Shown: in pieces, positions 13,811-17,048 of the stretch | Layout: the number at the start of each line of letters is the position of its first letter | Numbering within the stretch: the stretch's first letter is position 1 | Source of the DNA: a virus | Taxonomy: Duplodnaviria > Heunggongvirae > Uroviricota > Caudoviricetes | Length of the DNA stretch: 37,497 bases | Virus record (IMG/VR): IMGVR_UViG_3300008107_000053 | Reading direction: 5' to 3' (one strand) | Translations under genes and position numbers: made by a program | Notes under the pieces: generated by a model | Told to the model about the DNA's origin: nothing | The model's input: the letters and a program-made list of their open reading frames with translations, nothing else | Database searches by the model: none

Positions 13811-14460
13811 AAACCTTTATACACCATGATCTACCCAAACTTGAACGCACCACTGCACCAGATGGCACACGAGTTTATAAAACACCGTCGGGTAGAGCCT
13901 ATCCATCGGTCACCACCGTTACGTCCCTACATTCAGCAAAAGGAATTGCAGAGTGGCGTCGCAGGGTTGGTAATGAAGAAGCAAACAGGGTATCCGCAAG
14001 GGCATCTGCCAGAGGAACAAGAGTTCACACCCTCTGTGAACATTACCTGCTAGGTAACAATCCTGAGCCAGATATCTTTGACGCAGAGATCTTCAATTCA
14101 ATGAAACTCTGGTTGGATGACATCGATAACATCCACTGCTTAGAAACACCGCTGTACTCTGACTTCTTAGAAGTTGCAGGAACAGTAGATTGCATTGCTG
14201 AGTTTCAAGGTAAGCTATCAGTCATAGATTTCAAGACTGCAAATAAACCCAAAGATCGGGAAGATATATATAATTACTTCATGCAAACAGCTGCATACGC
14301 AGTTGCGTTTGAAGAACGCACAGGCATTCCAATTGGTAGGCTAGTAATTATCATGGGTGTGGAGAACGATGATCCACGACTGTTTATTGAGAAGCGTGAC
14401 AACTGGATCGGTGGATTCAGAAAATTGCGTTTAGACTACAAGAATGCCCATAATATTTGA
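13807..14460 (+). CDS. PD-(D/E)XK exonuclease (T4-like phage family)
   Basis: YPSVTTV, RGTRVH, E..L...VAGTVDC, VIDFKT, YFMQTAAY. Confidence 0.9.
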   Translation: MKTFIHHDLPKLERTTAPDGTRVYKTPSGRAYPSVTTVTSLHSAKGIAEWRRRVGNEEANRVSARASARGTRVHTLCEHYLLGNNPEPDIFDAEIFNSMKLWLDDIDNIHCLETPLYSDFLEVAGTVDCIAEFQGKLSVIDFKTANKPKDREDIYNYFMQTAAYAVAFEERTGIPIGRLVIIMGVENDDPRLFIEKRDNWIGGFRKLRLDYKNAHNI

Positions 14461-14485
14461 CTTGCAAATAATTAAGGGGTATAAT
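14457..14485 (+). promoter_or_regulatory. sigma70-type promoter, probably driving the tmRNA precursor
   Basis: TTGACT-17 nt-TATAAT; the ATG at 14487 is too close to be on this transcript. Confidence 0.7.
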
Positions 14486-14486
14486 C

Positions 14487-14696
14487 ATGTTATACATTGA
14501 TTACCATTTTGATCTTTCGGATGGATACATTCTGTTTGACGAAGAATTGCATCTTGCATCACAGGAAAAGAAACCTGACCAAGTTTGGGGAACTTTACCT
14601 AATGGATGGAAAGATGGCGATATGTTTAAATTACAGATCTCTGCAAACGGTAGAGTAATGCTTGTAAAAGCAACTCAACCAAACGGAGGTTTATAA
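14487..14696 (+). CDS. small hypothetical protein
   Basis: 69-aa ORF filling the gap between the exonuclease and the tmRNA. Confidence 0.65.
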   Translation: MLYIDYHFDLSDGYILFDEELHLASQEKKPDQVWGTLPNGWKDGDMFKLQISANGRVMLVKATQPNGGL

Positions 14697-15098
14697 GGAA
14701 TTGTTGTAATCCCTTCAAAGCGAAGGACTTCTGGACGTGGGTTCGACTCCCACCACCTCCACCAATAGGACTTTTATGGAACTTATCAAGTATAGAGATT
14801 CGGGGATGAATACTTATACCTACTTTTGGATAGATAGCAAAAAGCGTTGCATCTCTCCTTACTTTGATAGTTCAACAGATGCCACTGAATGGCTAAAGAG
14901 TTTTACTGATGGGGGTGCCTTGGTTTCGACAGAGGTAGATAGTAGAGACGGCAACACGGGAATGTGAAACCCGTAGGATTGGGGAAACTCGGTCGAAGAA
15001 GCAAAACAAAGTAAATGCAAACGACTCTGTCTACGCATTAGCAGCCTAAACGCTGCTTAGGGTTTCGGTTGGTTTCCTCGTAACAGAATAACCAACCA
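14697..15098 (+). ncRNA. ssrA: circularly permuted (two-piece) tmRNA: acceptor piece about 14697-14764, coding piece 14911 to about 15098
   Basis: T-arm GTGGG-TTCGACT-CCCAC and CACCTCC-A-CCA precede GGGGGTG...TTCGAC; the acceptor stem has a G3:U pair; tag ANDSVYALAA* at 15017-15049; AGAGGT/ACTTCT helix joins the two pieces. Confidence 0.92.
14776..14967 (+). CDS. 63-aa ORF starting in the tmRNA intervening segment
   Basis: AGGA RBS 5 nt before the ATG; reads through into the tmRNA 5' end. Confidence 0.55.
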   Translation: MELIKYRDSGMNTYTYFWIDSKKRCISPYFDSSTDATEWLKSFTDGGALVSTEVDSRDGNTGM

Positions 15099-15964: not shown

Positions 15965-16534
15965 ATGCAAAAAGAAAAGAAGTATCTATTATTTCAAATT
16001 TTAGTTGCAGTGTTTAGTATTTGCGTTATGCTTTACACAGCTAAAACTATTGGTTCCTTAGAACCAAGATTGCTTAATGTTGATTACTCAGAATTAACAC
16101 CATCTGCCAAGAAGCAAATTGACTGTCTTGCAGATAACATATATTATGAATCGGCGTATGAACCACAATCGGGTCAAGTAGCTGTTGCTCTGGTAACGTT
16201 AAATAGAGTTAACCATCCTGCATTTCCAAAAGACGTGTGTGGAGTTGTCAAGCAGAAAACAAATTCTACTTGTCAATTTTCTTGGTTCTGTATGAACGTA
16301 CCACGTAAAAACAGTGCAGTATACGAAGAAGTTAGAAAAGTAGCTCTTCATGTCTACTCAAACTATGAAAACATAGTAGACATAACAAAGGGCTCTTTGT
16401 ACTACCATGCAGATTATGTAAACCCAGGATGGAAATTACATAAGACTGTTGTTATTGGACGCCATATATTTTATAAAGGTAATGAACATGATGCAAAAAC
16501 TCAATCTTCAACTAAAGGAAGAACAGAATTCTAA
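15965..16534 (+). CDS. SleB-like cell wall hydrolase (Hydrolase_2) with N-terminal anchor
   Basis: CLADNIYYES, VALVTLNRV, FPKDVCGVV, CQFSW, YYHADYVNPGW, IGRHIFY. Confidence 0.92.
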   Translation: MQKEKKYLLFQILVAVFSICVMLYTAKTIGSLEPRLLNVDYSELTPSAKKQIDCLADNIYYESAYEPQSGQVAVALVTLNRVNHPAFPKDVCGVVKQKTNSTCQFSWFCMNVPRKNSAVYEEVRKVALHVYSNYENIVDITKGSLYYHADYVNPGWKLHKTVVIGRHIFYKGNEHDAKTQSSTKGRTEF

Positions 16535-17048
16535 ACATTCTTTCTTCTTGTTAATGGAAGATATTACGTTAGAATCTTGTAAGAGTGCGGTTGAGTGGAT
16601 CTTCGAATGTAATTTTGGAGAACAACGACCTGATATGTTAAATTTGGTTATCTGCTCTCCAGGTGGAGATCTTAATGCTGCGTTTGCATTAGTTGATACT
16701 ATGCGTGGCTCTGCCATTCCTATTAGAACTATTGGTCTTGGACAAATTGCTTCTGCTGGATTGATGATTTTCATCTCTGGCGATAAGGGTCAACGAATTC
16801 TAACACCAAATACTTCTATTCTTTCTCATCAATACTCATGGGGTGCTTTTGGTAAGGAACATGAATTGTTTGCGCAGATTAAAGAATTTGACTTAACCAC
16901 TAAACGAATGATTTCTCACTACAAGAAATGTACGGGATTGACGGATGCTAAGATTAGAGAAGTTCTATTGCCTCCTCAAGATGTTTGGCTTAGTGCTATT
17001 GAAGCAAAGAAACTAGGATTATGCGATGATGTTAAAGAACTATCTTAA
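16488..17048 (+). CDS. clpP: ClpP-like serine protease
   Basis: CSPGG, IASAG (Ser), LSHQ (His), QDVWLSAIEA (Asp); start moved to the ATG behind the AAAGGT RBS. Confidence 0.9.
   Translation: MMQKLNLQLKEEQNSKHSFFLLMEDITLESCKSAVEWIFECNFGEQRPDMLNLVICSPGGDLNAAFALVDTMRGSAIPIRTIGLGQIASAGLMIFISGDKGQRILTPNTSILSHQYSWGAFGKEHELFAQIKEFDLTTKRMISHYKKCTGLTDAKIREVLLPPQDVWLSAIEAKKLGLCDDVKELS

Follow-up and report, generated by a model that had tools for sequence, protein, structure and literature searches.

Can the spacer of a two-piece tmRNA precursor, usually treated as disposable, be a gene in its own right, and where would its translation end if the frame had no stop ahead of the processing site? The question is raised by a stretch of virus DNA of 37,497 nucleotides (IMG/VR record IMGVR_UViG_3300008107_000053, Caudoviricetes), hereafter the window, in which an open reading frame starts in such a spacer and runs into the mature RNA.

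A permuted tmRNA with a reading frame across its processing site

The window is part of a T4-like phage, with homologs of gp33, gp59, gp32 and gp5 and a ClpP-like gene close to the locus. ARAGORN reports a permuted tmRNA (tmRNA*) with the tag ANDSVYALAA, and Rfam scores it at 127 bits with RF04321 (gathering cut-off 47) and at 111 bits with the beta-type model RF01850 (cut-off 84). The order of a permuted two-piece tmRNA is present, an acceptor piece ending in CCA ahead of the coding piece, and the tag frame ends in a proteolysis signal. In its succession of acceptor piece, spacer and coding piece, and in a tag that ends in ALAA, the locus resembles the beta-type two-piece tmRNAs (RF01850, RF04321); its T4-like setting near gp33, gp59 and gp32 homologs is shared with the two-piece tmRNAs of aquatic T4-like phages such as Melnitz, where circularly permuted tmRNA is known (PMC9004378). 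It departs from the Rfam two-piece consensus in that the spacer is much longer, encodes a protein under selection and has the stop of that frame in the mature RNA. Cultured phages in INPHARED lack the locus and gave only short matches to the acceptor piece. RNase P is established as the nuclease that makes the tmRNA 5' end, and this role is described as probable for two-piece precursors (PMC3985003). The features are as follows.

14457..14485, + strand: sigma70-like promoter, TTGACT-17-TATAAT, 11 of 12 matches; probably drives the precursor
14702..14764, + strand: tmRNA acceptor piece with T arm, acceptor 3' strand and CCA end (ARAGORN, Rfam; 5' end approximate)
14765..14910, + strand: intervening segment (spacer), 146 nt, between the CCA end and G14911
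14766..14775, + strand: 5' arm of the closing stem, which prolongs the acceptor stem (computed structure, covariation)
14767..14770, + strand: Shine-Dalgarno-like AGGA, 5 nt ahead of the ATG, paired in the closing stem
14776..14898, + strand: conserved core of ~41 residues, common to hundreds of free-standing phage genes
14776..14967, + strand: 63-codon ORF, 45 codons in the spacer and 18 in the mature tmRNA
14896..14905, + strand: 3' arm of the closing stem, which is also ORF codons 41-44 (computed structure)
14907..14909, + strand: conserved TGA just 5' of the cut, out of frame here, the stop for most other spacer ORFs
14910..14911, + strand: putative RNase P cut at the coding piece 5' G, placed by homology (Rfam alignment; PMC3985003)
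14911..15100, + strand: tmRNA coding piece (ARAGORN, Rfam; 3' end approximate)
15017..15049, + strand: tag reading frame, ANDSVYALAA-stop (ARAGORN)

The ORF opens at ATG 14776 and reaches G14911 after 45 sense codons; another 18 lead across the acceptor strand, the D-loop and helix 2 to its first in-frame stop, TGA 14965-14967; the TGA at 14907-14909 overlaps the last spacer codon out of frame. All of these coordinates agree with the initial annotation (146-nt spacer, AGGA, ATG, 45 open codons, TGA), and so does the statement made there that the unprocessed precursor is able to encode a protein of 63 residues, from 45 plus 18 codons.

Some neighbouring elements deserve mention. A conserved 69-aa ORF (14487-14696) has its ATG 2 nt past the -10 hexamer of the 14457-14485 promoter; since this ATG lies upstream of the expected transcription start, the ORF as called is not on the transcript of that promoter. 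Sequences like the T4 late promoter, TATAAATA or near matches, are found 5' of the tmRNA, upstream of the acceptor piece, in L419, L421 and L422; the window has no such match at its tmRNA, only the sigma70-like site at 14457-14485. The ClpP-like protease gene of the window (16449-17048) lies ~1.5 kb downstream of the tmRNA, and relatives also have one near theirs (L038, 5879-6439; L163, 5228-5785). Since tmRNA-tagged proteins are degraded by ClpP proteases, the parts for tagging and for degradation may be co-located in the phage.

The spacer ORF is selected as a protein

When the spacer is shuffled by mononucleotides, 1.4% of the products have an ATG within the first 25 nt followed by a frame open to the spacer end, and 0.45% have it in the register seen here. 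Between the window and L038, both with the gene in the spacer, eight changes are synonymous and four non-synonymous (dN/dS 0.10; Fisher p 0.0003). For the window and L163 dN/dS is 0.22, and the values span 0.10-0.24 among the closest spacer-resident copies and reach about 0.5 for distant pairs. In these copies frame 0 has no stops and each other frame has 2-6. The substitution pattern, the low dN/dS and the stops in the other frames therefore indicate that the ORF has been selected as a protein while in the spacer. The residues that are invariant in its protein family are likewise retained. Judged from sequence, homologs and codon-level selection together identify the spacer ORF as a real protein gene and not a chance opening.

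A family of small phage proteins

The family comprises 556 clusters at 90% identity and 212 at 50%, built on a core of ~41 residues with nine invariant positions. The predicted fold of the core is two strands, a short strand and a helix (pLDDT 95), and the folded part terminates just ahead of the cut. No Pfam family was found (PF07411 matched 0 of 44 members), the PHROG search gave no convincing family, ESM Atlas features pointed to unnamed clusters at under 0.9, and no fold match passed Z 5 or E 0.001. A Lon-bound chain headed the VIA list (Z 4.8), within noise, and was set aside. The small strand-strand-strand-helix arrangement resembles that of the YegP-like/DUF1508 proteins (UPF0339; PDB 3bid, 6q2z, 2k7i), with a Foldseek probability of 0.91 (E 0.21), a VIA Z of 4.4 (rmsd 1.6 over 39 residues) and a TM of 0.65 between an Atlas DUF1508 cluster and the family core. 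Against this likeness stand an identity of 13%, the lack of a Pfam match and scores of the size that any common small fold may give; arm-DNA-binding and dsRBD-like domains reach similar values against the core. The predicted models thus point weakly to a YegP-like fold. No family or fold match to ribosome rescue factors appeared in the Pfam, PHROG and fold searches, although absence from these lists excludes nothing.

From its small fold and a conserved aromatic surface, the protein may be a module that binds a host protein or nucleic acid, and the tendency of the family to stay beside the tmRNA may point to joint expression early in infection. In GTDB genomes the only match was a partial one of 18 residues. 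Two divergent copies lie less than 1 kb apart in each of two genomes (L046, at 2647 and 3001; L070, at 1118 and 2069).

Most homologs are free-standing genes, some of them at a probable recombination hotspot

The initial annotation had raised the idea that homologs might always sit in permuted ssrA spacers. They do not: among ~147 distinct cores from the collected loci, 10 are in a spacer and ~93% are free-standing. The free-standing homologs have their own stop, after a tail that follows the conserved W for a median of 17 residues (range 3 to about 40) and is of eight residues or fewer in 28 of 253, or about one in ten. An acceptor piece lies within 400 nt downstream in eight of the 125 informative free-standing loci; more homologs are found upstream of a tmRNA in L054, L225, L422 and L426, and the frame reads into the acceptor piece in L109, L138 and L225. 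Overlap with tmRNA parts appears, from this frequent upstream siting and occasional read-in, to be a habit of the hotspot. Duplicated tmRNA 5' ends occur downstream of a family gene at L115, L197 and L198. Such arrangements mark the tmRNA neighbourhood as a probable recombination hotspot, in which the gene's expendable tail would take whatever follows.

A partial extra copy of the acceptor-piece 5' part, upstream of an intact tmRNA and separated from it by other genes, is present in L115, L197, L198, L173 and L183, and looks as if an insertion into the tmRNA 5' region had duplicated its target. A second small family, a Trp-rich membrane peptide, occurs both upstream of the tmRNA (L173, L181, L183, L197) and in spacers (L348, L359, L407), and genes therefore seem to shuttle between the two positions.

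The closing stem of the spacer is predicted to bury the ribosome binding site

In the computed structure the ends of the spacer pair with each other (14766-14775 with 14896-14905) and prolong the acceptor stem, the 5' arm containing the RBS and the 3' arm the final codons of the ORF. The pairing covaries: across ten family spacers, own arms average -12.6 kcal/mol and crossed arms -7.0, and 0 of 20,000 permutations were as low as the own pairs, the relatedness of the ten spacers being uncontrolled in this count. By computation, the start region can be opened for 3.0-3.9 kcal/mol as long as the nascent RNA is below about 38 codons; the cost is 6.7 when the RNA reaches the cut, rises to 11.8 once the precursor is complete, and is 7.5 for the spacer after excision. 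For 36 other start regions in the window it is 1.1-9.8, in every case below the precursor's value. Since the RBS is buried once the spacer closes, little non-stop translation is expected after the cut. Only the nascent precursor is likely to be translated, and little stop-less product is likely to be made. Initiation would take place mainly during transcription and end on closure of the stem, a closed state that would also be what RNase P needs. An early idea that the reading frame follows the type of closing stem was discarded, as L348, L359, L389 and L400 have the common stem yet read through.

Burial of this degree might also mean that the ORF is a silent or decaying passenger, locked in structure and untranslated in vivo. 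The precedent is the S23p ORF in the intervening sequence of Coxiella 23S rRNA, which is excised by RNase III, appears untranslated and is decaying (PMC4990558). In both cases a stem closes a segment that is cut out of the precursor of a stable RNA and contains a protein ORF; the start region of the precursor is costlier to open than any of the 36 others, and one family spacer (L417) has no Shine-Dalgarno sequence. S23p, however, lies wholly inside its segment, whereas the ORF of the window crosses the cut and is under purifying selection. The dN/dS values, a frame 0 without stops beside other frames that all contain several, and the retained invariant residues make a passenger very unlikely.

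Reading frames in other phage tmRNA spacers

A census was drawn up of 158 distinct phage spacers, in which targeted scans had enriched this family and AKAG-starting spacers. An ATG-led ORF that fills the spacer is present in 36, against about 1.9 expected after shuffling, and its ATG lies at +10 to +15 every time; the other 122 spacers have none. These ORFs form at least 17 unrelated families. Ten stop inside the spacer, mostly with a TGA or TAA one base ahead of the cut, and seven read through, six in frame 0 and one in frame 2; a single family has versions in both frames (L348/L359 in frame 0, L407 in frame 2). One family in three would be expected to stop, and stops are somewhat in excess of this (p 0.04); the surplus of frame 0 relative to frame 2 lacks significance (p 0.125-0.29). 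In the three scans that took no account of spacer content, eight families stop inside and four read through. With seven of 17 families in this class, read-through is therefore a frequent minority state and not peculiar to the gene of the window.

Several spacers stand out individually. A four-cysteine family of 41 codons (L251, L254, L258, L273, L276, L284) crosses the cut in frame 0 and shares its F-L-V-D junction with some proteins of the window ORF family. In L352 and L372 the frames opened in the spacer run into the tag frame and end in the tag (58 and 65 aa); they are probably due to chance and would encode pre-tagged peptides. The longest cargo is a 122-codon ORF in the L201 spacer of about 380 nt, which ends on the TGA ahead of the cut. 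The non-coding spacers of L011, L017 and L020 contain T-loop-like GGTTCGA motifs, which suggest tRNA-like fragments nested in the spacer.

The census bears on the possibility that what matters is ribosome traffic itself. Ribosomes passing through the RBS, the closing stem and the acceptor strand could compete with folding, so that tmRNA maturation would speed up whenever ribosomes are few or held up elsewhere, and the peptide would be secondary. This comes close to the loop of the initial annotation. The RBS and the closing stem are indeed mutually exclusive, and the ATG position is confined to +10 to +15 in all ORF-bearing spacers. RNA-library contigs are also compatible with this proposal. 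The RNA runs that contain the stretch are freshwater and river metatranscriptomes, represented by contigs only; contigs with two mismatches bridge 14852-15006 across the cut (X1 and X5, from two runs of one study), which fits an uncut precursor that may persist, or DNA. In two further contigs the sequence ends at 14764 and continues in adapter letters, a weak fit to a mature CCA end, possibly of relatives. The low contig coverage of 14762-14850 carries no weight as evidence. On the other hand, maturation does not need a spacer ORF, because 122 of the 158 related spacers, about three quarters, are without one, and in the window the protein sequence itself is under selection. Read-through would not be required for competition either, because a ribosome stopping one base before the cut would cover the acceptor strand too. 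By the same reasoning from ribosome footprint, the block to maturation that the initial annotation suggested for translation through the acceptor stem would apply equally to spacer ORFs that stop one base ahead of the cut. The self-regulating control of tmRNA output that it proposed is not supported. A switch of maturation by translation thus seems quite improbable as the role of the ORF.

All spacer-resident relatives cross the inferred cut in the same frame

Twelve spacer-resident proteins were compared (window, L023, L038, L067, L163, L166, L167, L417, L419, L421, P0006 and P0231, the last two assigned to spacers from their tmRNA-derived tails only). They are 31-93% identical to one another, have 44-48 codons ahead of the cut and reside on varied tmRNA backbones, as different as those of L419 and L421; six were retrieved by a profile of the core only, blind to the tail. 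All 12 cross the inferred RNase P site in frame 0, and none of about 290 family proteins has a frame-2 tail. Four candidate spacer members that stop before the cut (P0199, P0221, P0248, P0207) proved from their contigs to be free-standing, two of them directly upstream of a tmRNA. Past the cut the tails, 8-26 aa long, are dictated by the tmRNA sequence; their endings are varied, mostly polar or charged, with no conserved degron or common ending among them. The purine-rich leader is conserved as AGG or GAG in nine of ten sequenced family spacers, L417 having no Shine-Dalgarno sequence, and leaders have changed by single bases, which puts the ATG at +12 to +15. The frame and, with that one exception, the purine-rich leader are thus kept in related spacers, as the initial annotation would lead one to expect.

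How often the frame was chosen is a separate matter. On a 44-column tree the AU test rejects the 12 as a strict clade (p 0.001) but not a single entry with later exits (p 0.17, or 0.69 without L417); with 44 columns, independent insertions are not demonstrable from trees. Because one entry with exits is not rejected, the constant frame cannot be counted as a repeated independent choice. The missing stops are weak evidence, because a change of one base can create a stop only within the one to three codons that follow the W, at the price of a shorter helix. A one-base change of length after the core would put the neighbouring TGA in frame; it is never seen in the 12 proteins, whose 5' leader does shift, and this is suggestive, no more, of selection on the frame.

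Such selection would make the locus a designed source of non-stop message. Control by non-stop mRNA is established for arfA, through an RNase III cut, and for brfA, through a terminator (PMC8012679). By analogy, the stop of the spacer ORF would have its place past the cut for RNase P to turn the transcript into a non-stop message, the 45-aa protein would be tagged for ClpXP-type degradation and would accumulate only when maturation is slow or trans-translation saturated, and it would act as reporter or effector of tmRNA status. The shared element is a nuclease site ahead of the stop, which would hand the product to trans-translation; the nuclease would differ, being RNase P acting on the tmRNA precursor itself. 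Consistent with such a design are the frame 0 of all 12 members at 44-48 codons on very different backbones, the use of frame 0 by six unrelated families, the end of the folded core just ahead of the cut, and the ClpP-like gene 1.5 kb downstream and near L038 and L163.

A second precedent, together with arfA and brfA, is the overlap of smpB and ssrA in Carsonella ruddii, for which the passage of PMC4131195 that cites Mao et al. 2009 proposes a non-stop mRNA arising from tmRNA maturation. As that passage describes it, there too a coding frame on the same strand runs, without meeting a stop, over the site at which the tmRNA 5' end is processed, the expected non-stop mRNA is the tmRNA's own substrate and the tails are of apparently random sequence. 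The Carsonella gene, in that account, is an smpB upstream of a one-piece tmRNA gene in a reduced genome, whereas the window has an unrelated phage mini-protein in an excised spacer, its RBS being paired with the final codons of its own frame. It is not an smpB: the 45-aa core has no Pfam match and has a small strand-helix fold.

Several observations speak against an arfA-like design. The RBS is closed, by computation, in the cut or excised RNA; the full-length tails lack a conserved degron, and the family has neither rescue-factor features nor the hydrophobic, unstable tail of ArfA; the same protein is free-standing with a normal stop in most phages; and, as above, absent stops carry little weight and one origin is not rejected. 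I consider the design unlikely. The initial annotation was right that a cut at 14911 would leave a stop-less frame, in 12 of 12 spacer relatives, but with the RBS buried, translation of that message after the cut would be minor. It is doubtful that aquatic T4-like phages evolved spacer genes deliberately without a stop before the RNase P site, such that the precursor is an mRNA and, once matured, a source of non-stop messages for its own tmRNA, with the level of the small protein reading out tmRNA maturation and trans-translation capacity in the course of infection.

A proposed cargo gene expressed from the tmRNA precursor

The reading that I favour, with a probability of roughly 0.55, is that of a cargo gene for which the precursor serves as mRNA, which is switched off by folding and whose non-stop leftovers are cleared by the tmRNA. 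The spacer would be an exchangeable cargo slot, here holding a member of a mobile family of small phage proteins of the tmRNA neighbourhood, and the tmRNA precursor would double as mRNA of the spacer gene. Ribosomes would load on the AGGA and ATG while the spacer is still under transcription, run through the tRNA-like domain and release the 63-aa protein, its last 18 residues being filler dictated by the tmRNA. Once finished, the spacer 3' end would pair with the RBS, for which there is a computed structure with covariation; the pairing would shut off initiation and present the stem to RNase P, which would cut at 14911. Ribosomes in the loop at the time of the cut, or loading on trimmed leftovers, would end on stop-less RNA, and the tmRNA would rescue them and tag their products, which would then be degraded. 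This non-stop fraction would be minor, tolerated as a by-product and serving at the same time as clean-up. The constant frame would go back for the most part to a single insertion, after which the gene moved between the spacer and the site upstream.

The cargo reading draws on the mostly free-standing family, its variable tails, the overlaps at the hotspot, the varied cargo of other spacers, the one spacer family with both frame 0 and frame 2 versions, the single entry with later exits that the tree does not reject, the burial of the RBS with its covarying stem, and selection on the protein. Against it count the retention of frame 0 in 12 of 12 members over deep divergence, with strict monophyly rejected; the fact that about one in ten free-standing homologs end as early, and that the 5' leader shifts by single bases; and the count of zero frame-2 tails in about 290 proteins.

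Protein genes in tmRNA spacers found no mention in the Melnitz paper (PMC9004378) or in a 2025 tmRNA survey (PMC11915505), which does mention a tRNA gene and a repeat in spacers, and a literature search, with key older papers outside its coverage, found no report of them. The spacer of the window is a selected mRNA whose RBS appears to be shut by the stem that closes the spacer beside the RNase P site, and one transcript must therefore choose between translation and maturation. If the stop-less frame is selected, the locus would amount to an arfA-like circuit that is minimal and self-contained, and would offer a direct way into the question of why lytic phages have a tmRNA; if it is merely tolerated, phages that carry tmRNA can afford non-stop genes. 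In either case such ORFs are liable to be miscalled with tmRNA-derived heads and tails, as in P0002, P0003, P0005 and P0208.
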